Shown in pieces: positions 2 to 22,567 of a stretch of DNA of 32,000 nt. The first letter of the stretch is position 1. Every line of letters starts with the position of its first letter. Where the stretch lies: contig NZ_CP007536.1 in assembly GCF_000698785.1 (NCBI RefSeq), forward strand, positions 1,380,001 to 1,412,000, given 5' to 3'. The notes under the pieces were generated by a model, which had not been told where the DNA came from, ran no database searches, and saw only the letters and a program-made list of their open reading frames with translations. The translations under genes and the position numbers were made by a program. This DNA comes from Nitrososphaera viennensis EN76. Lineage in GTDB: Archaea; Thermoproteota; Nitrososphaeria; Nitrososphaerales; Nitrososphaeraceae.

Positions 2-2926
2 AAGTCGGGAAACCTTGACGCCTATTATTTCCATATTCCGCTTGAAGCGGCGGCCGACGCAAAGAGCGACCCCCGCGTGACTGTATACGACAGGACTGCC
101 GGCTCTGCCGGGCTCTTGATGAACCCCGCGCCGGCCAGGGACGGAAATTCCCTCAACCCGTTCTCCATAAAGGAAGTCAGGTTTGCCATGAACTACCTCA
201 TTGACCGCCAGTTCGTGGTGAACGAGATCTACAAGGGGTACGGAAGCCCGCTTGTCGACCCCTTTGGCATCTACTCGCCGGAATACCTCAACGTCATTGA
301 CACGGTAGAGTCGTTCGGGTTCAGCTACAACCCCGGCCTTGCAGAAAAAATGATCACCGACGCCATGACTGCCGCCGGCGCCACCAAGGATGCGGCAAGC
401 GGCAACAAGTGGATGTTCAAGGAAAGCCCCGTCACCGTCAAGATAATGATAAGGCTCGACGACGCATCGAGAAAATCGATAGGAGAGCTTGTCGCCTCAA
501 AGCTCGAAGAGTCAGGGTTTACGGTGCAAAAGGAATATGGAGACCTGACCAAGGCCAACACCATAGTATACGGCTCCAACCCGCAGGACCTGAAATGGAA
601 CGTGTACACGGAGGGGCTTGCAGGAACGTCTGTGTTCGTGAAATACAACCCGATAATACCGGGCCAGATGTACGCCCCGTGGGTCGGCAACATGCCGGGC
701 TCCCAGAACCCGAGCTTCTGGAACTACCAGAACTCCACGCTTGACGAGATTACGCAAAAGATATTCTTTGCCAACTTTACGTCGGCAGAAGACAGGAGCA
801 GGCTGGTGAACGCGGCCGTCAAGGGTGGCATACAGGAATCGGTCAGGATATTCCTTGCGCAGAGGACAGAGCCGTTTGTGGTTTCTTCTTCGCTCAAGGG
901 CGTGGTCAACGACTTTGGCGCAGGCATCACAAGCAAGTATTCGCTCGTAAACGCCCGGCCTTCAGACGGCAAGGGCACCCTCAACATCGGCGTCAAGCAG
1001 ATCCATCAAGGGTCATGGAATGGCATAGGCGGCCTGTCAGACACGTACAGCAGGGACATCTTTAACAATGTCTACGACAGCGCTACTTTCAGGGACCCGT
1101 ACACCGGCGAGATAATCCCCATGAGGACCCAGTGGACAGACATCTCCACGCAGGGCCCGACCGGCAAGCTGCAAGTGGCAGAGGACGCCCAGACGTGGGA
1201 TCCCGCCACGCAAAAGTGGAAGGACGCCGGGCCCGATGCCACTGCCACGAGCAAGGTCACGTACAAGCTTCTCTATTCAAAGTGGCACAACGGCATCCCG
1301 ATGGACAAGTCTGACCTGCTGTACTCCCAGTACTTTACTTTTGAGTGGGGCACCAATTCTGGAAGCGACGACCAGACGGTCGACCCAGAATACACCTCGT
1401 CGGCCGCGCCGGCACTCCCGCTCCTCAAGGGAATCAAGTTTACGTCGGATGGCACCCTAGAGTCGTACGTCAACTTTTGGCACTATGACGACAAAGAGAT
1501 AGCTGACTTTGCGCCGGCGTGGGCGGCAGAGCCCTGGGAGATAACCGCGGCGACTGAGAGGCTCGTCACCGACGGCAAGTTTGCATATTCAAGGAGCCAG
1601 GCAAGCGCCAAGAACGTCGACTGGCTCGACCCGATAGTGCCGGAGCACGCGCAGGCGATAAAGGAAGAGCTGCAACAGATGAAGAGCGAAAATTACGTAC
1701 CTGCGGCGCTCAAGGGGATAGTGAGCGTTGACGACGCGAAAAAGCGCTACGACGCAAGCATCGCCTGGATAAACACGCACGGGAACGCCATCATCAGCAA
1801 TGGCGCGTTCTACCTTGACAGTTTCAACATTGCCGGAGGAACGATAACCATCAGGGCTTTCCGCGACCCTTCGTACCCGTTTGAGCAGGGGCACTGGTCG
1901 GCCTACGAGAACCCGAAGCTTGCGACGATAGAAAGGGTGGACGCGGCCAGGATGATAGAGATAGGCAAGCCGGCGGAAATGACTGTCAGCGTGCAGGTAG
2001 ACGGCAAGCCGAGCAACGACGCGCTGGTAGAATATTTCATATTCAACAAGGACGGAAAAGTTGTTGCAAGGGGCGAGGCCAAGGCAGCGCAGGACGGGAG
2101 CGCAGCAGGGACGTTCAGGGTTGACCTGACGCCGGAGAACACGTCGAAACTGACGCCGGGGCCAAGCCAGCTAAAGATATTTGCAAACAGCAAGTACGCT
2201 TTCAGGCCGGACATTTCGACCAACACCATCCTTGCCGTGGCTGCAGGAGCGCCAGGCGGCAGCAATAGTGGAGGAGTAAGCACGACAACTCCCGGCAGCA
2301 ACGGAGGGCAACAGCAGCAACAACCACAGCAGCCGGCGCAGCCGTCCGGGTGCCTCATCGCAACAGCGGCGTTTGGCTCCGAACTGACGCCACAGGTGCA
2401 GTACCTCCGCAACTTTAGAGAACATTACATACTGTCAACCGCCTCCGGCGCGGCGTTCATGAACGCCTTTAACACGGTCTATTACTCGTTCAGCCCGCAG
2501 GTCGCGGATTACGAGCGCCAGCAGCCGTGGCTGCAGGCCACGGTCAAGACCGCCCTGTACCCGCTGTTCGGGATACTGATGGCGTCAGAAAAGGCGTACT
2601 CGGTGGCCGCAGGAGGCGACGCAGGGGCGGTGGCGGCAGGAGCCGTTGCAAGCACGCTGATTGGCGCTGTATACCTGTGGCCGGCGGCGCTTTCGGCGCG
2701 CCTGCAGGGCAGGTTTGGAATTGCTGCCAAGGTATCGCTTGCAGTGATGGGTGCCGCAGCAGCGTTGATTGCAATAGGCGTGGCAACGACAGACAATTCG
2801 CCGTTGCTGCTGTTAGCAGGCACGTCCCTGTTTGTCCTGTCGGCGGCAAGCGCGTCCGCGATTGCAGTCGGCAAGCTGGCAAGGATCGGCTACACCGCGC
2901 TAATACGGCAGGCAGGCAGACATTAA
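2..2926 (+). CDS. ABC transporter substrate-binding protein, family 5 (peptide/nickel type); 5' end lies outside the window; C-terminal poly-Q linker, Cys-box and hydrophobic tail
   Basis: The frame of ORF 77..2926 stays open back to nt 2 (KSGNLDAYYFHIPLEAAADAKSDPRV...), so the GTG at 77 is internal. The sequence looks like a family-5 SBP. Two Dpp/Opp-type permease genes follow directly. Confidence 0.85.
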   Translation, partial: KSGNLDAYYFHIPLEAAADAKSDPRVTVYDRTAGSAGLLMNPAPARDGNSLNPFSIKEVRFAMNYLIDRQFVVNEIYKGYGSPLVDPFGIYSPEYLNVIDTVESFGFSYNPGLAEKMITDAMTAAGATKDAASGNKWMFKESPVTVKIMIRLDDASRKSIGELVASKLEESGFTVQKEYGDLTKANTIVYGSNPQDLKWNVYTEGLAGTSVFVKYNPIIPGQMYAPWVGNMPGSQNPSFWNYQNSTLDEITQKIFFANFTSAEDRSRLVNAAVKGGIQESVRIFLAQRTEPFVVSSSLKGVVNDFGAGITSKYSLVNARPSDGKGTLNIGVKQIHQGSWNGIGGLSDTYSRDIFNNVYDSATFRDPYTGEIIPMRTQWTDISTQGPTGKLQVAEDAQTWDPATQKWKDAGPDATATSKVTYKLLYSKWHNGIPMDKSDLLYSQYFTFEWGTNSGSDDQTVDPEYTSSAAPALPLLKGIKFTSDGTLESYVNFWHYDDKEIADFAPAWAAEPWEITAATERLVTDGKFAYSRSQASAKNVDWLDPIVPEHAQAIKEELQQMKSENYVPAALKGIVSVDDAKKRYDASIAWINTHGNAIISNGAFYLDSFNIAGGTITIRAFRDPSYPFEQGHWSAYENPKLATIERVDAARMIEIGKPAEMTVSVQVDGKPSNDALVEYFIFNKDGKVVARGEAKAAQDGSAAGTFRVDLTPENTSKLTPGPSQLKIFANSKYAFRPDISTNTILAVAAGAPGGSNSGGVSTTTPGSNGGQQQQQPQQPAQPSGCLIATAAFGSELTPQVQYLRNFREHYILSTASGAAFMNAFNTVYYSFSPQVADYERQQPWLQATVKTALYPLFGILMASEKAYSVAAGGDAGAVAAGAVASTLIGAVYLWPAALSARLQGRFGIAAKVSLAVMGAAAALIAIGVATTDNSPLLLLAGTSLFVLSAASASAIAVGKLARIGYTALIRQAGRH

Positions 2927-2960
2927 AATAGAAAAGCAACCCCAAGAGCTGTGAGCAGAT

Positions 2961-4010
2961 TTGGTGGGAGGCTTTGGCCGCTTTTTGGCAAGGCGTTCGG
3001 CAAACATGCTGATCGTGCTGTTTGCGACGCTCGTACTTACGATAGCGCTCCTTGGCCCGACGATGGACAGGATACTGTCCGACGCGGCCAGGTTTGCCGT
3101 CGTTGACGAGGTCAACCACGCCAAGCTGAAATTCCAGAGCGCACAGGAGCGGCAGCAGTACATCGACGACAGGGTCCAGCTCCAGATAAGGACGCTCGGC
3201 CTCGACGAGCCGTGGTACTCGCCAAAGAGGTTCACAAACACCGTGCTCAAGGTGATGACGCTTGACCTGGGCAGGTCCAACTTTTTCACAAGCGACAGCG
3301 GCTCCTCAAGCGTCAGAGACATCATACTGGAAAGGATGCCCAAGACGGTGCTCCTCTTCACGACCTCGACCCTAGTGATAACCGTCATAGGGCTGTACCT
3401 GGGCGCCTACGTCGCCAACAAGTCAGGCTCTGTTCTTGACAGGCTCAACTCGGCGTTTGCGGTGTTTAGCGGAAGCTTTCCCACGTGGTGGGTGGGAATA
3501 CTCATGATCTTTGCGTTTGCGTTTACATACCACATCTTCCCGGCGCGGGCTACCCCGCTCACCGCGCCGTCGGACCCCGCGTACGTGCCTGATTTATTAT
3601 ATCACATGGTGCTCCCGCTCATAACCATAGTCGCGGTGGGCTTTGGCTCGTGGGCATACATCGTGAGGTATTTCGTGGTGGGCATACTGGGCGAGGATTA
3701 TATCGCGGCAAAGAGGGCAGCCGGCGTGCCGGAAAAGAGGATCGTCTATTCCCATGCGCTGAAAAACGCGGCTCCCCCCATAGTCACCGTGATCGCGCTC
3801 AGCCTTGCAGGGTCCTTTGGCGGGGCCATCACCGTCGAGGCGGTGTTTGACTGGCCCGGCATGGGGAGGCTCTACTACGACGCAATAGGCTTTCTGGACA
3901 TACCGGTCATAATCGGCCTCACGTACGTCGCCACGGTCATTTTCGTAGTCACCGTCTTTGTCACCGACATCGTCTACGCCTATTTTGACCCGAGGGTGAA
4001 GGTCGGATGA
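2961..4010 (+). CDS. ABC transporter permease (DppB/OppB-like)
   Basis: N-terminal TM segment 'FLARRSANMLIVLFATLVLTIALLGP'; conserved cytoplasmic loop 'EDYIAAKRAAGVPEKRIVYSHALKNAAPPIVT'; C-terminus 'DIVYAYFDPRVK'. TTG start at 2961 (alternative ATG at 3006). The stop overlaps the next start in ATGA at 4007-4010. Confidence 0.9.
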   Translation: MVGGFGRFLARRSANMLIVLFATLVLTIALLGPTMDRILSDAARFAVVDEVNHAKLKFQSAQERQQYIDDRVQLQIRTLGLDEPWYSPKRFTNTVLKVMTLDLGRSNFFTSDSGSSSVRDIILERMPKTVLLFTTSTLVITVIGLYLGAYVANKSGSVLDRLNSAFAVFSGSFPTWWVGILMIFAFAFTYHIFPARATPLTAPSDPAYVPDLLYHMVLPLITIVAVGFGSWAYIVRYFVVGILGEDYIAAKRAAGVPEKRIVYSHALKNAAPPIVTVIALSLAGSFGGAITVEAVFDWPGMGRLYYDAIGFLDIPVIIGLTYVATVIFVVTVFVTDIVYAYFDPRVKVG

Positions 4011-5455
4011 GCGGCAGATCATCATCGTCGTCTCCTTCTGCAGCGGCTGCTGCCGCTGCCGCGATTTCAAGGTCCCAGATGCTCAGGGAGTTCCGGCGCT
4101 CAAAGAGCGGCCTGGCCGGCGTGGGCATACTGTTGGGCCTTATCTTAATGACGATATACTCGGCAGTCGCAATACCGCTGGACTCGTACCGGCAGTGGAA
4201 CAACCCCAACTTTTGGATAGATCTGCCCAAGTCGGCCGCGCCGGCGTGGACAAACATCGGGTTTGGCCCAAAGGTGCCGGAGCACTTTGTGCTGCATGCC
4301 AGGGACGCTACCATATCCACTTCTGGTGTTGGCAGTAGCCGGACGGTGACGTACTCGTACACCGTGAATTTCAACTATGATTCCTACCCGAGCGACTTTA
4401 TGCTGCTGTACTCTGCCAGGTACGGAAGCACGCAGCCGGCGCTGCAGGCAGACGTGCTCAGGCCCGACGGCAGGGAATTTCGGATCTACTTTGCGCCGCT
4501 CCCGCCTGCGTCCCAGAGTACGGGCAGTGGCGCCAGCAACGAGTTTTCCGGCAGGGTCTTTTCCACCGACAGCGGGATAGCCGAGAACCTGCGCGGCTAC
4601 ACGGACGCTTTTGCATACAGGCAGGACCTGTCGAGGCCGCAGATGATGATATTTGCAGACACCCAGGAAAACCACGCGCTAAAAGGCACGTACGTCATTC
4701 GCCAGACGTTCTACCTCTTTGGCCCGGACGACACAATCACGGATTCAGGCGTCATACTCGGGGGCAAGGTGTACGGCCTGATGGGCACCGACGAATTGCG
4801 CCGCGACCTTGCGACGGGCATCCTGTGGGCCGCGCCGGTGGCGCTCTTTATCGGCCTCACGGTATCTATAGCGTCCATACTCATCGGCCTTGTGTACGGC
4901 GTGGTGGCCGGCTACAAGGGCAGGCGGACCGACGAGGGGCTTATGCGCATAAATGACATCTTTTACTCCCTGCCGACGCTGCCGCTGCTAGTCATCCTCT
5001 CCGTCACGATAGGGCGCAGCATATTTTTGATAACTGGGTTTCTCGTCATCTTTGGGTGGGTCGGCATGGCCAAGATAAGCAGGAGCCTTGCGCTCCAGCT
5101 AAAGAACCTGCAGTACGTCGAGGCCGCAAAACTGATGGGACAGTCTGACGCAAAGATAATCTTCCGGCACATAATCCCGCAGCTCCTGCCGCTGACATTT
5201 GCGAGCATCGCCATTGCGGTGCCAAGCGCGATCCTCGGCGAGGCCGCGCTATCTTTTCTGGGCCTTGGCGACCCGTCGATTCCGACGTGGGGCCAGATAC
5301 TGCACGACGCCAACTCTGCCGGCGCGGCCGTTCGCGGCCTGTGGTGGTGGATAGTGCCGCCGGGCCTCATGATAGCCGTGACTGGCCTTGCATTTGCGCT
5401 CATCGGAAACGCGCTTGACTCGATAGTGAACCCGCGCGCAAAAAGGATGCAGTAG
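4007..5455 (+). CDS. ABC transporter permease (DppC/OppC-like) with a long N-terminal extracytoplasmic insert
   Basis: Permease core motifs 'YVEAAKLMGQSDAKIIFRHIIPQLLP' and 'LIGNALDSIVNPR'. About 215 aa lie between the first TM (GVGILLGLILMTIYSAVAIPL) and the core. The N-terminus is a Ser/Ala homopolymer (SSSSSPSAAAAAAAA). Confidence 0.9.
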   Translation: MSGRSSSSSPSAAAAAAAAISRSQMLREFRRSKSGLAGVGILLGLILMTIYSAVAIPLDSYRQWNNPNFWIDLPKSAAPAWTNIGFGPKVPEHFVLHARDATISTSGVGSSRTVTYSYTVNFNYDSYPSDFMLLYSARYGSTQPALQADVLRPDGREFRIYFAPLPPASQSTGSGASNEFSGRVFSTDSGIAENLRGYTDAFAYRQDLSRPQMMIFADTQENHALKGTYVIRQTFYLFGPDDTITDSGVILGGKVYGLMGTDELRRDLATGILWAAPVALFIGLTVSIASILIGLVYGVVAGYKGRRTDEGLMRINDIFYSLPTLPLLVILSVTIGRSIFLITGFLVIFGWVGMAKISRSLALQLKNLQYVEAAKLMGQSDAKIIFRHIIPQLLPLTFASIAIAVPSAILGEAALSFLGLGDPSIPTWGQILHDANSAGAAVRGLWWWIVPPGLMIAVTGLAFALIGNALDSIVNPRAKRMQ

Positions 5456-7028: not shown

Positions 7029-7982
7029 TCAGAGCCAGCCCTGCTTGCGGAAGTACAGGAGCATGAGGCCGGCTGGCGCCGCCGAGATCGCGATTACAAA
7101 AATAAAAGTGGTGTAGGGCCCAAGCTGCGTCCACGGGCCCGTCTCTATCCCGCCGGGGATGTTGACGTTCATGCCGTAAAACGCGGCCACGACGGCCGCC
7201 GGGATTGAAAGCGTGAATATGATGGTCAGCACCGCAAGGATCTTGTTGGTCTTTTCGGTGCTCAGCACATAGTCGGTATCCTTGTAGATCTCGACCGTCT
7301 CCTTTGCCTCCTCAAGGGCCTCGTACACCTTTTCCACGTGGTCCTGCACGTCTTTGTAGTACGGGGTCAGGTCCTCGCTTGAAAACCTCTGCACGTCCCT
7401 TGTCAGGTCCACGACGATCCGGCGAAGGTGGATAACTATTCTGCGCAGAGTCGTTATCTCGCGGCGCAAAAGTGCTATCTGCCGGGAGACTGAAATGCGC
7501 TCGTCAAACACCAGGTCCTCGATGTCCTCTATGTTTCCCACCACCTTCATGAGGAGGTGCAGGAGGTCGTCGACGAGCGTGTCGATTATCTTGTGCAAGA
7601 GGTAGCCGGAGGACTTGCCCATTATGGCCTGGCGCATCTTCTCGTCGGCCTTGCACATGTTGAACAGCTCCTCAAGGGGCTTGAGGTCTCCCTGATGCAC
7701 GGTGACAACAAAGCTTGCGCCGATGAACACCGACAGCTGCGAAAACACGAATCCGCGCTCCTTGTCGGCGGTCGGGAAGTGCAGCACGATGAACATGTGG
7801 TCGTCGTAGCGGTCTATTTTTGGAAGCTGGATCTTTGAAAGGCAGTCCTCAAAGTTGAGCTTGTGAAATGACGGGTGGCGCTCGCCGAGCGTCGCAAGGT
7901 CGACGTAGGCCGGCCTCTGTATGTAGGTCCAGTCCAGGCCATTGTTGGTGATAGTGTCCTGCCTCTTTTGCGCCTCCATCAT
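7029..7982 (-). CDS. corA: CorA-family magnesium/cobalt transporter
   Basis: The C-terminal two-TM region carries the signature 'FYGMNVNIPGG' (GMN motif). The 317-aa length is typical. Confidence 0.9.
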   Translation of the reverse strand: MMEAQKRQDTITNNGLDWTYIQRPAYVDLATLGERHPSFHKLNFEDCLSKIQLPKIDRYDDHMFIVLHFPTADKERGFVFSQLSVFIGASFVVTVHQGDLKPLEELFNMCKADEKMRQAIMGKSSGYLLHKIIDTLVDDLLHLLMKVVGNIEDIEDLVFDERISVSRQIALLRREITTLRRIVIHLRRIVVDLTRDVQRFSSEDLTPYYKDVQDHVEKVYEALEEAKETVEIYKDTDYVLSTEKTNKILAVLTIIFTLSIPAAVVAAFYGMNVNIPGGIETGPWTQLGPYTTFIFVIAISAAPAGLMLLYFRKQGWL

Positions 7983-15330: not shown

Positions 15331-15798
15331 TCACCGCCGCTGCTGCCCTGCCTTGACAGGGGTCATTGCCATCGTCCTTGAAATGATAGAACAAATAATT
15401 CCAACTCCTGCCGCGGTGCCGGTGAACCAGAGGACGTAATTGCTCAGAAAGTTTGCTCCTTCTGGCGGCGATGATGATGATGCAAAGCCAAGGACCAAGC
15501 TGAGGATTATTGTGATGATGCCCTGGCCGGTCCCTATCATTACGAGGAACTTGCCGCTTGTGATCCTGTTTTTGAAAAACAACACTCCCCCGATCATCAC
15601 TACGATGCCGCCAAGCTGCGCAACCAGCGCCAGCAACCCGACCGGCACGATGGCGACTTGCCAGACATCTCTGGCCGTGTACTCCTTCAGGCCTGCGATA
15701 GCCAGATCGTAAACGACTGTGCTTGGGTGATAGCCGGAAACGAGAAAAAGCACGCCGGATGCTATTGCCAGCATTCCTGCCAGCTTGTTACGGATCAT
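15331..15798 (-). CDS. hypothetical membrane protein (about 4 TM)
   Basis: Hydrophobic segments run throughout. It is co-directional with and downstream of the DUF2182 gene. Confidence 0.5.
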   Translation of the reverse strand: MIRNKLAGMLAIASGVLFLVSGYHPSTVVYDLAIAGLKEYTARDVWQVAIVPVGLLALVAQLGGIVVMIGGVLFFKNRITSGKFLVMIGTGQGIITIILSLVLGFASSSSPPEGANFLSNYVLWFTGTAAGVGIICSIISRTMAMTPVKAGQQRR

Positions 15799-15973
15799 AC
15801 TGGTGTTCAGAAAAATATTTTCTTGGCATTAAGCAATTATGGAGACTCTCTCTTGCACCTTTTTTCAGTTTTAAGCAGTACCTAAAGCGCCAGGAACGCA
15901 AGTGATGATTACTACTACTGCCGTTATCGCGTCTGCAAAATGATTATCATAGGCATTTTCTCGTCCTAGTTTT

Positions 15974-16924
15974 TTATGTCATCCCGTCGGGCATCTCTTG
16001 GGTCGGCGCCATGTTTGCAGGCGGATTCAGGGCAGTGTCAGTACCAGAAGCCATGTCGCCCGCAGGCGGCATCATGGGAATAGAAATTGCTGACGACCCG
16101 CCCGTGACTACGACCAGGATTCCAATCATCATAAATCCAATTCCTGCAGCTCTTGCAATCCATATCCCCTTCTTTGACCAGATTTTTTCCCCAAAGATTA
16201 TTCCCGAAAACAAGGCCATCCAGAGCAGGTTCATCCAGCCAAGCGCCACCATCAACAAAAAGTACGGCCAGCAGCACCCCAGGCAATACAGGCCATGAAA
16301 GACTCCCATCTTGGCCGCTCCTGAAACGCCGTTGCGCCACCTCCTCATGAAAAAGCTCAGGGGAGATTCGCAGTACCCGAGGCACCTAGCCTTGAGCGGG
16401 CTGAACTGATAGGCCCCTGCAATAATTAGGATGGCGCCATAGATGTACTGTGCAGACAACTCTGATGCCGCGCTTGTTACGGCGCTCATCAACGCGGACC
16501 ACCCAAACAGCAGGACAAGCCCCGTCAGTGACCAGACCGCAAGATAGCCGCCGACAAATAGCATGGTCTTGAAGGGATAGTAGACTTTCTTTCTGGAAAC
16601 ACCATTATCATCATTTTTCTGTAAAGTCATCTGCACCTGGCTGCTGTTTTTTTCCGAGCCGGCCAGCCTGTTGTAGAGAAGCACCATCGGAGTGATGGCA
16701 GGAAACATCATTGCGGCCATGCCGACGGTCCACAACGATACAAAAAACAGGTAAGATGATGATGATGCCATCAAGCCAAGCTTATCATTACTGTCGCTGC
16801 CCATTCCAGAAGCTAAAGACATCATCGCCATCATCATATCGTTCTGAAAAGCCTGGGAGGTCAGCCAGCCTGCTGCTGAAACAGAGACAAGCGAAACGAG
16901 GATTACCTTTTGCACTTTGTCCAT
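15974..16924 (-). CDS. DUF2182-like polytopic membrane protein (predicted metal-binding) with Met-rich termini
   Basis: 'GMAAMMFPAITPMVLLY' and 'YCLGCCWPYFLLMVALGWMNLLWMALF' resemble DUF2182 as I recall it. The start is 40 nt downstream of a DUF1326 gene, the usual partner. Family call made by eye only. Confidence 0.7.
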   Translation of the reverse strand: MDKVQKVILVSLVSVSAAGWLTSQAFQNDMMMAMMSLASGMGSDSNDKLGLMASSSSYLFFVSLWTVGMAAMMFPAITPMVLLYNRLAGSEKNSSQVQMTLQKNDDNGVSRKKVYYPFKTMLFVGGYLAVWSLTGLVLLFGWSALMSAVTSAASELSAQYIYGAILIIAGAYQFSPLKARCLGYCESPLSFFMRRWRNGVSGAAKMGVFHGLYCLGCCWPYFLLMVALGWMNLLWMALFSGIIFGEKIWSKKGIWIARAAGIGFMMIGILVVVTGGSSAISIPMMPPAGDMASGTDTALNPPANMAPTQEMPDGMT

Positions 16925-16964
16925 ATCCCAGCATCCCTGCTGCCGCTACTGCAGCATCATCATC

Positions 16965-17597
16965 TCACGGCCCCCTGTATTCCACCACTGAGACAAAGGC
17001 GTTCTTGCCTGAATCGTCAAAGTTGAGGTTTGGCGTCATTATCCTCATTAACGAACTCTTGGCGGCATCTGCCACCTTCCAGATGAAACCTTTTGGAAGC
17101 TGCACCTTTGTGTCCTGCTCTTCGCCAGTAACGGGATTCTTGAAGCTCTCAAGGCGGACATCCAGCACCCCAGGCACGGAGAAACTGCTTTTCTTGCCGT
17201 CCAGCTTGACGTTAATGTCGACGAACTGGGGCTCTAGCATGTACTTTACGGTCGTCGCAAAGATCGCAAAGGGCCCCTCTCCTTTTGCCTTTCCTGAAAA
17301 GATGCTCACGACCGCATCTCTCTGCTCCGGCGTGGTATTGTTTGAAATAAACAGCTGCATCGTACCGTTCCCCTCGTGAATCGCCTTGGGCCAGGACGCG
17401 GCGTACACCACGTCGATGTTGTCAAGTTTTACGCTATCGCCGTAATGGCCTTCCCTTATGTGGTACAGAACCAGCGCCCTGCAAAAGCCGTATGTCGGAT
17501 AGCCGTTAAAGTTGCAGGGGCAGCCATAGTCGCAGTTGCACGTCTCTATGTAGTCGATTTTTGTCATCCAAGAAGGAATCTCAACCACAGAAGTCAT
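16965..17597 (-). CDS. DUF1326-like Cys-rich protein (paralogue 1)
   Basis: 'SWMTKIDYIETCNCDYGCPCNFNGYPTYGFCRALVLYHI'. The ATG at 17597 is preferred because a TATA-like CTTATTAC lies 24-31 nt upstream (17621-17628). The ORF track's start at 17675 would add 26 non-conserved residues. Confidence 0.75.
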   Translation of the reverse strand: MTSVVEIPSWMTKIDYIETCNCDYGCPCNFNGYPTYGFCRALVLYHIREGHYGDSVKLDNIDVVYAASWPKAIHEGNGTMQLFISNNTTPEQRDAVVSIFSGKAKGEGPFAIFATTVKYMLEPQFVDINVKLDGKKSSFSVPGVLDVRLESFKNPVTGEEQDTKVQLPKGFIWKVADAAKSSLMRIMTPNLNFDDSGKNAFVSVVEYRGP

Positions 17598-17860
17598 ATG
17601 ACGACTGTACGTATGCGTATGTAATAAGCAATTGTCGATGGTGCAACCTGTATCACTGCCGCCAACAAGCAGCATCGAAAAAGTTTATAGCTTGCAAGTA
17701 GCTTGCGTCTATCCCTCGCACTAAATCAAACGTCCATGTTGCTAATCATGTTCAACTAAAAACAGGATAATTTCATAGTTTTTCACGTATTTGTCACCAG
17801 ATGGCCAGAATCCTTGAATAGGCGGAATCAGGCTATCATGACCAAATAGAGAAATCTTAT

Positions 17861-18316
17861 ATGACAATAATCCAGCTTTGGACGAATTCTGACGAGACAG
17901 AGTTTGCCATCAGGCGGGCTTCAGACACGATAGGGTTCCGGGCTTCCACCAGCAACACCGCTGACTATGTCAAGGTCGCGGATGAAATGCATGAAATGTA
18001 CGACCAGCAACAGATTGACTGGCCTTTCATGCTCGAGAGGTGGATAGCAAGCTGGAAGGACGGCTTTCGCCATTCTGCCCTGCTGCCGCCATACGAATGG
18101 GAGCTGCAAAAGGGCGCCGAGCGTCATGCCCCTGCGCCACCCTTCTCCGTCTCCGAGATAAAACAGCAACAAGGCAGGCGGGCCAAGAGGCGCCGCAAGT
18201 CCCGGCGCAAAAAGCTCACAGTAAAGTGCAGGTTCTGCAATCTGATGTTCTACAATGATGTTGAACGCTTAACGCATGAAAAGGAATGGCACCCAAGTAA
18301 ATCAGAGGCCAAATGA
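17861..18316 (+). CDS. basic protein with a C-terminal classical C2H2 zinc finger
   Basis: 'CRFCNLMFYNDVERLTHEKEWH' fits C-x2-C-x12-H-x4-H. It is preceded by the basic tract 'RRAKRRRKSRRKK'. Codon usage looks coding. Confidence 0.6.
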   Translation: MTIIQLWTNSDETEFAIRRASDTIGFRASTSNTADYVKVADEMHEMYDQQQIDWPFMLERWIASWKDGFRHSALLPPYEWELQKGAERHAPAPPFSVSEIKQQQGRRAKRRRKSRRKKLTVKCRFCNLMFYNDVERLTHEKEWHPSKSEAK

Positions 18317-18481
18317 TGCGACCTAGATGAGCAGCGAAAAATAACAGTTAACTAGAAGAGCATAGAGACTTCTTTGACAAAAAACTAACCCCGAACATCC
18401 ATGGTATATTATACAGGTTGATTCTCAAAATCTCTTGTCGTTATTATTATTGCTTCATGATAACAACCTTGATGATGGCAT

Positions 18482-19120
18482 TTAGGGGCCAGCCCAGTCG
18501 AAAGGAATGTGCTTACTCGATCTCCCTTTCCAGTCCCACTTGAAGCCCATGGCATCCACTTCGTCAGCTACAGCTCTACCCCATGTCGCAACGGTACCTG
18601 GTCCCGTCTCGCTTCCAGGCGCATTAAGAGTCTGTACTCGTTTGCCGGGTGGAGTCATGGGTCCAGTTAATGCTTCACCTCTTGCAGAGACCCTCCCCGG
18701 GATTTCCGCGCTCCAATAAGCAAGATCCTCTGCTATCTCAAACTTGATTGGAACAAATTCCGTGCCGCGGTCTTCTCCAAAGACCTTGGCAAGCTCTCCC
18801 ATGAAGCCACCTGCTTTGCCGGTAAATATCATCTGAAGAGCTTCTCGCTGCTTTTCATTAGCTCGCTCGTCGAAAAAGAATCCCATGGTTGCTTTTGCCT
18901 CCCCCGCCCAGATATTGCCCTTGAAACCTCCAACGAATAACGCGTTCAAGCCATCGAGCTTTGTTTCGCCATAGTGTCCATTCTTGATATGATATGCAAG
19001 TATGCCTTCGCAATCTCCATAAGACGGAGCTTGAGCAAATGTACAGGGGCAGGGAATATTACATTTGCAGACATCAAACCAGTCTCCTGAAGCCTTCCAT
19101 TTGGGAATATCTGCAGACAT
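18482..19120 (-). CDS. DUF1326-like Cys-rich protein (paralogue 2)
   Basis: 'IPKWKASGDWFDVCKCNIPCPCTFAQAPSYGDCEGILAYHI' aligns with paralogue 1. The ATG at 19120 has a TATA-like CTTAAAAT 23-30 nt upstream (19143-19150). The ORF track's start is 19153. Confidence 0.75.
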   Translation of the reverse strand: MSADIPKWKASGDWFDVCKCNIPCPCTFAQAPSYGDCEGILAYHIKNGHYGETKLDGLNALFVGGFKGNIWAGEAKATMGFFFDERANEKQREALQMIFTGKAGGFMGELAKVFGEDRGTEFVPIKFEIAEDLAYWSAEIPGRVSARGEALTGPMTPPGKRVQTLNAPGSETGPGTVATWGRAVADEVDAMGFKWDWKGRSSKHIPFDWAGP

Positions 19121-19226
19121 ACAATTTGGTACAGTGCGCGTCATTTTAAGCATTTAGAAGATGAAATAATGATTTTGTTACCTACAAGAGATTGATATCT
19201 CGAAATTTTTTAAAAGATGATGCTAT

Positions 19227-21841: not shown

Positions 21842-22567
21842 TTAATCGCTAACAAGGCCGTCCCTGAACCTGATGCTTGCATGACTGCCGTTGCAAAATG
21901 GCATATTACTTGAAGCCCCGCACCTACATAGCGTTACGCGATTTCGCACTTCGTAGCGCTTGCCGTCATGGGATTCAATAGGAATGCCTCCGCGAATCCA
22001 TAGCGGTCCGCTGCACCCCAAGGCAGGGTCTTCGACCACCCCAATAGAAGGAGGGAGCTTGTGTTCGATCTCCTTTCCAGTCTTTTTATCGTGCACCACC
22101 AGCCGGCCTGCCGGGCAGTGATTTGCTTCGCGTATCACCAATTCACGAGCGGCAGGGTTGTCGGCTTGCTCAATCAGGTTCCAAATCTGTCCTGCAGGAT
22201 CGCAAAAACGCGCAAATGCGCACAAGTTTTCTGCGTCGCTAAGAACCATTGTCGGGCCATCATATTTTTTGGCTTGCCGGACATACGGCCTGCGCGTCGC
22301 AGTTTCTTTCCCCTCAAATCCTATTTTCTCATGGGTCCCGTCGCAAAATGGCTTGTTCTTTGACTGCCCGCACCGGCACAGCGCATACTCTGATGATTGC
22401 GTATCAAACGATCTGCCCTCTGTCCAGTCCCACGAAAAACCCTCTTTGTTTGGGGTAATGGTCTGTATCGAAAGGGGAATGCCGCCTGAAACCAGATAGG
22501 GCCCGTTCTTGCTGACGATTATCTTTTTCTCCAAAGATTTGTCCGCGTTCCGATCTTCCTCTCGCAT
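21842..22567 (-). CDS. CDGSH-type iron-sulfur domain protein (two CDGSH motifs flanking a central Cys-containing segment)
   Basis: 'CRCGQSKNKPFCDGTH' and 'CRCGASSNMPFCNGSH' fit C-x-C-x2-S-x3-P-x-C-[DN]-G-[ST]-H. The central segment is 'CAFARFCDPAGQ...NHCPAGRL'. Confidence 0.85.
   Translation of the reverse strand: MREEDRNADKSLEKKIIVSKNGPYLVSGGIPLSIQTITPNKEGFSWDWTEGRSFDTQSSEYALCRCGQSKNKPFCDGTHEKIGFEGKETATRRPYVRQAKKYDGPTMVLSDAENLCAFARFCDPAGQIWNLIEQADNPAARELVIREANHCPAGRLVVHDKKTGKEIEHKLPPSIGVVEDPALGCSGPLWIRGGIPIESHDGKRYEVRNRVTLCRCGASSNMPFCNGSHASIRFRDGLVSD

Follow-up and report, generated by a model that had tools for sequence, protein, structure and literature searches.

The locus considered here belongs to the soil ammonia-oxidising archaeon Nitrososphaera viennensis EN76, in keeping with the thaumarchaeal assignment of an initial annotation made from the DNA alone, and covers locus tags NVIE_016310 to NVIE_016360 within a 32-kb window, by which we mean the whole stretch of DNA that was analysed. 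The five open reading frames have the coordinates and strands that were first given for them (Table 1), and the start codons chosen at that stage agree with the 210-aa and 212-aa RefSeq proteins. The sequence itself shows an A/T-rich TTATTACA about 27 nt upstream of the DUF1326-A start codon. The promoter motif that other copper-limitation genes of N. viennensis have in common, TTCSGSMTTTGWACYANT (Reyes et al. 2020), had no match in the whole 32-kb window when up to three mismatches were allowed. Pfam scans of the ORFs in the window found no tyrosinase or multicopper oxidase among them, nor any other obvious copper-enzyme client.

Table 1. Genes and sequence features of the locus, with positions in the window
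Feature	Position	Strand	Basis
Predicted 4-TM protein NVIE_016310, 155 aa; neighbour of the pair	15331..15798	-	ORF
PpoB2-family polytopic membrane protein NVIE_016320, 316 aa	15974..16924	-	PF09948 (ex-DUF2182, COG5486, arCOG10678)
PpoB2 Met-rich acidic C-terminal tail, residues 276-316, 6 Met	15977..16099	-	Sequence
PpoB2 invariant thiolate/His cluster codons, C181-x3-C185 ... H210-x3-C214-x2-C217-C218	16271..16384	-	Homologue alignments
40-nt spacer, DUF1326-A upstream, PpoB2 downstream	16925..16964	-	Same-strand genes
DUF1326 type A (His type) NVIE_016330, 210 aa, soluble	16965..17597	-	PF07040
DUF1326-A five family-invariant Cys codons, C20-x-C22-x3-C26-x-C28 ... C39	17481..17540	-	Alignment
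Divergent intergenic region, DUF1326-A / zinc-finger gene, 263 bp	17598..17860	.	Read from sequence
Basic single C2H2 zinc-finger protein NVIE_016340, 151 aa; neighbour of the pair	17861..18316	+	Spacing motif
DUF1326 type B (non-His type) NVIE_016350, 212 aa	18482..19120	-	PF07040 (arCOG11393)

Two protein families and their conserved residues

The membrane gene had been placed in DUF2182, and its product indeed matches the corresponding profile PF09948, whose current Pfam name is "PpoB2, copper chaperone", over the full length (187.2 bits against a cut-off of 28.7, E 3.8e-55; profile positions 2-187 of 188 aligned to residues 63-270); the biofilm data set discussed below enters it as arCOG10678. 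In two alignments, one of 50 and one of 36 archaeal and bacterial homologues, M69, M73, C181, C185, H210, C214, C217 and C218 are invariant in the family and M72 is nearly so. The protein is Met-rich, as was first remarked, with 28 Met in 316 aa. Loop 1 holds a family-wide mean of 4.7 Met in 23 residues, and the C-terminal tails of Nitrososphaerales homologues are 15% Met (median 9 Met in 51 aa), a tail that bacterial homologues essentially lack. The distribution of charges is consistent with an N-in, C-out protein, which would place the Met-rich parts outside, including a predicted extracellular C-terminal tail, and the C-x3-C motif inside, with C181 and C185 in a strongly positive, predicted cytoplasmic loop and the remaining cluster residues in TM5. 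The structure model of PpoB2 is moderately confident (pLDDT 69).

Both soluble genes likewise belong to DUF1326, as proposed, with full-length matches to PF07040 (arCOG11393) of 182 bits for DUF1326-A (E 1.5e-53) and 187.5 bits for DUF1326-B (E 3.1e-55) against a cut-off of 25. The soluble protein is mostly beta-stranded, the AF2 model of DUF1326-A reaches a pLDDT of 95.8, and no signal sequence is visible by eye in this copy. The arrangement C-x-C-x3-C-x-C...C is present in both copies; the five Cys of DUF1326-A are invariant in a 34-sequence alignment with identities down to 28%, and the first four were found in 156 of the 161 DUF1326 ORFs in the fetched loci. DUF1326-A carries WPKAIHEGNGT, which matches the His-type motif WP(K/G)xIHEGNGT (WPxxIHEGNGT); DUF1326-B keeps the five Cys, with FKGNIWAGKATM in place of WPKAIHEGNGTM, and is of the non-His subtype, given FKGNIWAGKAT at the motif position.

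DUF1326-A is 70-89% identical across Nitrososphaerales and 32% identical to DUF1326-B. Judged by their sequences, the two are ancient paralogues from two old clades, which are found together in bacteria and other archaea too; contrary to what had been supposed, they hence did not arise by local duplication on either side of the zinc-finger gene. Nor was a DUF1326-DUF2182 module duplicated, since a single PF09948 gene stands against two DUF1326 genes.

Across genomes, the DUF1326 and PpoB2 families are near-obligate neighbours. A neighbourhood survey, which the initial annotation had suggested, found a DUF1326 gene adjoining 60 of 80 PpoB2-anchored loci, and informative loci without one numbered three. 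Anchored on DUF1326 instead, PpoB2 adjoined 37 of 50 bacterial loci, which bears out the earlier statement that the families tend to be neighbours in bacteria, and 11 of 30 archaeal ones. The order DUF1326 then PpoB2 prevails (50/60 adjacent PpoB2-anchored and 42/48 adjacent DUF1326-anchored pairs), with a median gap elsewhere of 16-24 nt (about 20). As no other Pfam family is recurrent beside the pair, we regard it as self-contained.

Response to copper limitation and the neighbouring genes

Ammonia oxidation and electron transport in ammonia-oxidising archaea depend on copper. A re-check of published transcriptomes for a copper response showed that DUF1326-A (log2FC +2.64, padj 2.6e-35) and PpoB2 (log2FC +2.60, padj 2.8e-27) rise about six-fold when copper is limiting (Reyes et al. 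2020, Dataset S1), with flanking genes unchanged or down. Their common strand, the short spacer between them and the near-identical fold changes indicate that the two genes are probably co-transcribed. The second paralogue, DUF1326-B, does not share the response (log2FC -0.006), and two more solo DUF1326 genes in N. viennensis are expressed at far higher levels and are barely copper-responsive. In the biofilm data set, changes of +1.47 for PpoB2, +2.36 for DUF1326-A and +1.19 for DUF1326-B accompany a rise of the copper-acquisition genes MCO1 and CopC/D, which the authors of the biofilm paper discuss; the response of DUF1326-A and PpoB2 is never discussed in the published N. viennensis transcriptome papers. 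The pair is very weakly expressed (TPM 2-8).

An important aspect of these data is the direction of the response. Co-induction of DUF1326-A and PpoB2 by copper limitation points to a role in acquisition or in cofactor insertion, and it speaks against detoxification. While copper resistance systems typically employ Cys- and Met-rich proteins, a detoxification or efflux system would be an odd answer to copper scarcity, as opposed to excess, and we hold this explanation to be highly improbable.

The zinc-finger gene had been put forward as a local regulator, and it is quite unlikely, in our view, that it controls the divergent DUF1326-A/PpoB2 unit. The gene does face DUF1326-A across a 263-bp promoter region, it rises weakly under copper limitation (+0.79, p 0.006), and its product joins a basic stretch to a finger, C123-x2-C126-x12-H139-x4-H144, that fits C-x2-4-C-x12-H-x3-5-H and is invariant in all seven members of the family, although Pfam yielded no zinc-finger profile for it at E <= 0.01 and a sub-threshold Arnt_C match alone. 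Its position between DUF1326-B and DUF1326-A is kept in N. evergladensis and a related metagenome lineage (L007/L008) besides N. viennensis, and nowhere else: the gene is missing at the locus in every other relative examined. This covers all other Nitrososphaeraceae loci with the pair, among them loci where B and A are directly adjacent and one (L004) where they overlap by one base. Family members with a taxon label are all Nitrososphaera, one homologue sits in an unrelated neighbourhood of its genome, and the gene is not regulated in the biofilm data set, where the pair rises. The gene is an insertion specific to its lineage. On the other side of the pair, the 155-aa NVIE_016310 matches no Pfam or NCBIfam family, is syntenic in close relatives only (73% identity in L004) and changes by +0.64 under copper limitation and +0.67 in biofilm, neither significant.

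A candidate copper relay

Taken together, we consider the chances slightly better than even that DUF1326-A and PpoB2 form a Cu(I) relay or metallation pair. The metal relay of the initial annotation, tentatively ascribed to Cu(I), gains from the copper-chaperone family of the membrane partner and from induction under copper limitation, and loses its detoxification option. Weighing against copper handling are the absence from the window of the copper-limitation promoter motif and of an obvious copper-enzyme client, the very low expression of the pair and the two barely responsive solo DUF1326 genes. The core would be a two-gene copper-handling unit, DUF1326-A then PpoB2, with an old DUF1326-B of the other subtype alongside. 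PpoB2 would be a seven-helix membrane protein whose outer Met-rich segments (loop 1 and the C-terminal tail of the archaeal lineage) capture Cu(I), whose intramembrane site (a Met triad, one His and three Cys) passes it onward, and whose cytoplasmic C-x3-C loop gives it to, or takes it from, the DUF1326 C-x-C-x3-C-x-C...C cluster. DUF1326 could then be either a carrier of Cu(I) in the cytoplasm or a dedicated metal-requiring client, comparable to the tyrosinase served by PpoB2 in Marinomonas. We infer copper as the ligand of the two proteins, as we do their topology, the contact between them and which way the metal moves. Since it is copper scarcity that the genes answer to, import is the favoured direction, though transfer may instead be export toward extracellular copper enzymes.

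The same residues could also serve a transmembrane thiol-disulfide or electron relay, or another soft or cluster-forming metal (Zn, Fe-S, Ni), in which case the transcripts would be responding to the chelator TETA and not to copper. Five invariant Cys in each partner would suit such a role, as would the dense C-x-C motifs, which bind Zn or Fe-S clusters too. However, neither model resembles DsbD/CcdA or any solved protein fold, the invariant Met and the Met-rich outer segments indicate Cu(I) over Zn or Fe-S, the founding PpoB2 member is copper-specific, and 5 nM copper relieved TETA stress in N. viennensis (later preprint). We regard this reading as very unlikely.

The locus is thus a concrete candidate for copper acquisition or distribution in ammonia-oxidising archaea, found in a cultivable model archaeon and made up of a homologue of the sole characterised PF09948 copper chaperone and a structurally unsolved five-Cys protein, co-induced by copper scarcity. 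The PpoB2 copper-chaperone family and its usual DUF1326 partner were already known, so the pair is a real candidate and not categorically new. According to the family table of the biofilm paper, both families occur in N. viennensis only and not in N. franklandianus or N. maritimus, which rules the pair out as the general source of copper for ammonia oxidisers. Its importance is limited by this restricted distribution, by weak expression and by the putative nature of its copper binding.

Comparison with known systems

The closest functional precedent is PpoB2 of Marinomonas mediterranea, a membrane chaperone that transfers copper specifically to the tyrosinase PpoB1 (PMC2855505; reports of 2004/2007). 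Compared at the level of the family profile, the N. viennensis protein is a full-length, high-scoring member of the same Pfam family, polytopic and equipped with metal-binding residues, and in both organisms it is encoded directly beside its presumed soluble partner, in the order partner then PpoB2. Unlike in Marinomonas, the partner is DUF1326, with no tyrosinase in the window, and the archaeal protein adds the Met-rich C-terminal tail.

The second precedent is the DUF2182/DUF1326 pair named DmdE/DmdF in Ruegeria lacuscaerulensis and other Roseobacters (EMBO J 2026, PMC12992908). With it and the Marinomonas work, the initial view that no function had been demonstrated for either family is outdated. 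The genes dmdE and dmdF are always adjacent, co-regulated and each needed for the same phenotype (PMC12992908), and one shared phenotype is what would be expected if one partner serves the other. The sole biochemical report on the DUF1326 family concerns DmdF, which consumed H2O2 when purified and was called a peroxidase, and a dmdF mutant had raised ROS; copper is never mentioned (PMC12992908). As in the Roseobacters, the same two families are adjacent in N. viennensis, on one strand and 40 nt apart, but the order is reversed (dmdE then dmdF in Roseobacters), the host is archaeal and the trigger is copper limitation, not DMSP. The linkage to dmdR, dmdA/acuI and often dinB that marks DmdE/DmdF is absent, none of these families being found in the window by Pfam scans, and homologues outside Rhodobacterales are stated to be phylogenetically distinct (PMC12992908).

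These findings raise the question of whether the archaeal pair is itself an oxidative-stress pair, with DUF1326 as a thiol- or metal-dependent H2O2-consuming enzyme, PpoB2 as its membrane helper and the copper-limitation response secondary to oxidative or growth stress. Besides the DmdF results, the rise of the pair in biofilm and clustered Cys that would suit peroxide chemistry fit this picture, as does the upward trend of DUF1326-A under DMPP/ATU inhibitor stress (+1.9 to +2.1), although these changes are non-significant; the DUF1326-A response may have a general stress component. On the other hand, the DmdF assay used 440 ug protein per lane and identified no cofactor (PMC12992908). The Met/Cys/His site of PpoB2 and its membership of a copper-chaperone family would also be left unexplained. 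Furthermore, N. viennensis relies on H2O2 scavengers supplied from outside, and this speaks against an effective peroxidase of its own. We consider oxidative stress as the primary role unlikely, and the copper and peroxidase readings would be compatible if DUF1326 were a copper-requiring peroxidase loaded by PpoB2.

The locus joins three literatures that do not cite one another, namely those on Marinomonas PpoB2, on Roseobacter DmdE/DmdF and on N. viennensis transcriptomes, a connection which suggests that a fault in metallation may underlie the DmdE/DmdF phenotype. A bolder possibility, to which we give limited though not negligible credence, is that DUF1326 represents a previously unrecognised cytoplasmic Cu(I)-thiolate class, that its His and non-His types act as a heterotypic pair and together with PpoB2 provide a high-affinity route of copper uptake and metallation, one that serves many bacteria as well as soil ammonia-oxidising archaea, and that the DmdF "peroxidase" reflects the activity of a copper-loaded client.

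Finally, the proposed Cu(I) relay can be set beside CopC/CopD and CopZ with its P1B-ATPase. The N. viennensis proteins are unrelated to these in sequence and fold and lack an ATPase domain, and in place of the ferredoxin fold of CopZ, DUF1326 is mostly beta-stranded, with a five-Cys cluster, and cytoplasmic. What the systems would share, as proposed here, is a soluble metal-binding protein and a membrane partner that pass Cu(I) through Cys, Met and His sites, and the CopC/D genes of N. viennensis are likewise induced in copper limitation and biofilm.

Gene order and conservation of the DUF1326 and PpoB2 genes

All five genes proposed in the initial annotation appear in the ORF table at the same positions, and exact-sequence look-ups, which identify the window as Nitrososphaera viennensis EN76 and the genes described here as NVIE_016310 to NVIE_016360, showed that the RefSeq re-annotation uses the same shorter start codons. 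The assignments to DUF1326 and DUF2182 were both upheld by full-length Pfam profile matches (see table); PF09948 is called 'PpoB2, copper chaperone' in the current Pfam release, the name 'DUF2182' having been dropped. No Pfam or NCBIfam family was matched by the 155-aa membrane ORF, the zinc-finger ORF or the 157-aa ORF upstream of DUF1326-B, the last of which is found at the same place in L004 (nearest of the relatives found), in the metagenome locus L007 and in N. evergladensis.

Window features, with Pfam scan matches and transcript changes (log2FC, padj in brackets; ns, not significant). Cu limitation: Reyes et al. 2020 (PMC7785015, Dataset S1), a plus sign meaning higher expression in Cu-limited cultures. 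Biofilm versus planktonic: 2025 study (PMC12448741).
Feature	Locus tag	Position	Strand	Pfam match	Cu limitation	Biofilm
155-aa membrane ORF	NVIE_016310	15331-15798	-		+0.64 (ns)	+0.67 (ns)
PpoB2 gene	NVIE_016320	15974-16924	-	PF09948, full-length, E 3.8e-55	+2.60 (padj 2.8e-27)	+1.47 (1e-13)
DUF1326-A	NVIE_016330	16965-17597	-	PF07040, full-length, E 1.5e-53	+2.64 (padj 2.6e-35)	+2.36 (4e-20)
Zinc-finger gene	NVIE_016340	17861-18316	+		+0.79 (padj 0.006)	-0.35 (ns)
DUF1326-B	NVIE_016350	18482-19120	-	PF07040, full-length, E 3.1e-55	-0.006 (padj 0.98)	+1.19 (7e-9)
157-aa ORF	NVIE_016360	19227-19700	-		-1.05 (padj 3e-5)	-0.60 (1e-4)
Inverted repeat, 15 nt, 80%		17834-17848/18448-18462				
Inverted repeat, 10 nt, 100%		17644-17653/18411-18420				
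949-aa protein (family-5 solute-binding domain, partial match only), then two ABC permease genes (Opp/Dpp/Nik type)		77-5455	+			
CorA gene		7029-7982				
241-aa protein with two CDGSH-type iron-sulfur domains and a divergent 4Fe-4S mono-cluster domain (Fer4_19)		21842-22567	-			

The expectation that the two families tend to be neighbours was borne out by a survey of gene neighbourhoods, in which partners within <= 300 bp were counted as adjacent. In the genome collection, PpoB2 adjoined DUF1326 in 37 of 50 DUF1326-anchored bacterial loci (31 of the 37 pairs with DUF1326 first; median gap 16 nt), lay farther away in one and was missing from 12, ten of them with adequate flanks. For Nitrososphaerales the corresponding figure was 11 of 30, all with DUF1326 first (median gap 24 nt), together with two loci having a more distant PpoB2 and nine solo loci with adequate flanks; the archaeal solo loci reflect extra paralogues such as NVIE_008000 and NVIE_018060, which lie outside the window in N. 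viennensis. Metagenome contigs anchored on PpoB2 gave an adjacent DUF1326 in 60 of 80 cases (50 with DUF1326 first) and a more distant one in three, and only three informative loci had none. No third partner recurred among the 136 genes flanking bacterial pairs, where the commonest Pfam family occurred only four times, and neither DinB, tyrosinase nor multicopper oxidase was among the 25 most frequent of the 120 families matched there. The pair is therefore a self-contained two-gene unit, one that can be split, since in N. gargensis (L001, 2274-3149 and 8001-8627) the orthologue of DUF1326-A lies ~5 kb from the PpoB2 gene, on the opposite strand.

The initial picture of a module duplicated around the zinc-finger gene did not hold. 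DUF1326-A and DUF1326-B share 32% identity and fall into two separate clades of a distance tree, and other Nitrososphaeraceae have orthologues in each clade (60-94% identity); they are old paralogues. Their order also varies among relatives, being B-A-PpoB2 with a one-base B/A overlap in L004 (A 88-89% identical), A-B-PpoB2 in five loci (L016, L017, L023, L024, L028), A-PpoB2 with B convergent in L010, A-PpoB2 only in five others (L006, L012, L013, L015, L018), and B-[zinc finger]-A-PpoB2 in the window, in L007/L008 and in N. evergladensis. From the old clades and the varied order we conclude that the module is not duplicated, and that nothing is duplicated around that gene. On the metagenome contig closely related to N. 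evergladensis (L007 2794-3506, L008 1149-1861), DUF1326-A is split into ORFs of 91 and 143 aa by a frameshift or assembly error; N. evergladensis SR1 itself has an unbroken copy (L090 5001-5636).

The zinc-finger protein combines a KRRRKSRRKK stretch with a finger of the form C-x2-C-x12-H-x4-H. It belongs to a family of seven, the taxon-labelled members being Nitrososphaera, in which the N-terminal domain is conserved and the linker varies, and which has a basic stretch and a finger that is invariant. Its gene is a lineage-specific insertion: it is placed between paralogues that directly adjoin, in either order, in several other Nitrososphaeraceae, and one homologue sits in an unrelated neighbourhood. 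The gene is transcribed, with a rise of only +0.79 under copper limitation and no significant change in biofilm. We found no evidence for its suggested role as a local regulator, which we consider improbable. Signs of mobile elements around it were limited to short inverted repeats, which could be chance matches or an insertion remnant. An IS605 OrfB/TnpB (Cas12f-like) gene lies beside a 2-hydroxyacid dehydrogenase gene in N. evergladensis (L090 863-2026) and its relative (L007 6406-7569), and is absent from the equivalent place in the window.

Conserved residues and predicted structures

PpoB2 homologues share the invariant residues M69, M73, C181, C185, H210, C214, C217 and C218, with M72 nearly so, and these are candidate copper ligands. 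Across 50 homologues, net charge is positive at the N-terminus (+1.8) and in loops 2 (+2.4), 4 (+4.5) and 6 (+1.5), and negative in loop 1 and the C-terminal tail, a pattern which, under the positive-inside rule, argues for seven helices with the N-terminus inside and the C-terminus outside. This predicted topology would put loop 1, rich in Met (on average 4.7 per 23 residues), outside and the C-x3-C loop inside, with a Met cluster in helix 2 and a His/Cys cluster in helix 5. Nitrososphaerales proteins have an additional acidic, Met-rich tail (15% Met) at the C-terminus, which is missing from bacterial homologues. A model built from database homologues reached moderate confidence (pLDDT 69) and had no Foldseek match in the PDB (E >= 0.23), nor did a profile search of PDB sequences return anything at E <= 1.

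In DUF1326, five cysteines (C20, C22, C26, C28 and C39 in A numbering) are invariant in an alignment of 34 sequences reaching down to 28% identity, and the first four occur in 156 of the 161 DUF1326 ORFs of the fetched loci. The AlphaFold2 model of DUF1326-A is confident (pLDDT 95.8) and mostly beta-stranded; it matched nothing in the PDB at E < 1e-3 by Foldseek, and profile searching of PDB sequences likewise gave nothing at E <= 1. The best Foldseek matches, acetoacetate-decarboxylase-like proteins (MppR, Swit_4259), were rejected as homologues, their TM scores of 0.35-0.38 being unconvincing. None of five long DUF1326 matches was fused to PpoB2, and one of them bears a partial FAD_binding_4 domain.

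The family divides into two subtypes. DUF1326-A carries the motif WPKAIHEGNGT, common to most bacterial homologues, in place of which the B clade has FKGNIWAGxxx; the His is likewise missing from the second copies in L050 and L088, both bacterial. Over all fetched DUF1326 loci (L010-L170), 106 of 161 ORFs are of the His type (WPxxIHEGNGT) and 55 of the non-His type (often xPxxMxEGNW). Thirteen of the 16 two-copy loci are mixed (two are non-His/non-His, one His/His), which hints at a heterotypic DUF1326 pair.

Response to copper limitation and biofilm growth

Re-examination of published transcriptomes, as proposed in the initial annotation, showed that DUF1326-A and PpoB2 are both induced under copper limitation (see table). 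NVIE_016360 responded to copper limitation and biofilm growth in the direction opposite to the pair. The main text of Reyes et al. 2020 (PMC7785015) mentions none of NVIE_016310-016360, and the promoter motif reported there for other genes induced by copper limitation had no match in the window with <= 3 mismatches; bacterial promoter and terminator scans were uninformative for an archaeal window.

In the biofilm study the pair is transcribed at low levels (TPM 2-8), and its authors take the co-induction of MCO1 and CopC/D to mean that cells respond to a matrix that sequesters metal by acquiring copper (PMC12448741). In their family table both families are marked for N. viennensis alone, with neither N. 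franklandianus nor N. maritimus marked. The solo paralogues NVIE_008000 and NVIE_018060 are far more strongly expressed (log2 RPKM 7-8 vs ~3.5) and barely react to copper limitation (+0.65 and +0.40); the family therefore also functions with no PpoB2 next to it. Inhibition by DMPP and ATU gave non-significant changes for DUF1326-A (+1.9 and +2.1; padj 0.16 and 0.10) and for PpoB2 (~+0.75), and supplements of a carbon-limitation study had no entry for these genes.

A proposed copper-handling pair and its characterised relatives

The best-supported reading, which we hold with moderate confidence, is that the pair is a copper-handling Cu(I) relay. When copper is scarce, the cell turns on PpoB2 and DUF1326-A together, and the former, as a membrane chaperone or transporter of the PpoB2 type, would swap Cu(I) with the adjacent cytoplasmic five-cysteine DUF1326; copper binding by both proteins is a prediction from their residues. 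The initial proposal of a metal relay for import, cofactor insertion or detoxification thus keeps its central copper-handling idea and, the genes being induced by copper scarcity, is narrowed to acquisition or cofactor insertion rather than detoxification. Detoxification, other metals and redox relays jointly take the leftover confidence.

Both families, their adjacency and the copper role of PF09948 are already published. What our analysis adds is the observation that, in a model ammonia oxidiser, the pair is induced by copper limitation and in biofilm, the division of DUF1326 into His and non-His types with mostly heterotypic two-copy loci, the Met-rich tail of archaeal PpoB2, and the reclassification of the zinc-finger gene as a lineage-specific insertion. 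The pair offers a useful and testable lead on how archaea handle copper and on the function of DUF1326, if no surprise to specialists.

The earlier statement that both families lack a demonstrated function is contradicted by work on two bacterial systems, beyond which a full-text literature search by family names and arCOG numbers returned no further paper and nothing on archaea. In Marinomonas mediterranea, PpoB2 shares an operon with the tyrosinase PpoB1 (PMC2855505), is required for specific copper transfer to it, and was the first COG5486 protein given a role. In Roseobacters, the adjacent DUF2182/DUF1326 pair was named DmdE/DmdF in a 2026 EMBO J paper (PMC12992908), according to which the two genes are 'always adjacent' and each is needed for growth on DMSP. 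Purified DmdF consumed H2O2 in an assay using 440 ug protein per lane, and the paper left a metal cofactor unconsidered. The main rival reading, a primarily oxidative-stress system whose copper response is indirect, sits well with that activity and would have to treat the copper-limitation induction as secondary; we consider it less likely than the relay. Under the copper relay, DUF1326 would be a carrier or, by analogy with tyrosinase, the metal-requiring client, and as a client it would also accommodate both the peroxidase report for DmdF and the common phenotype of dmdE and dmdF.
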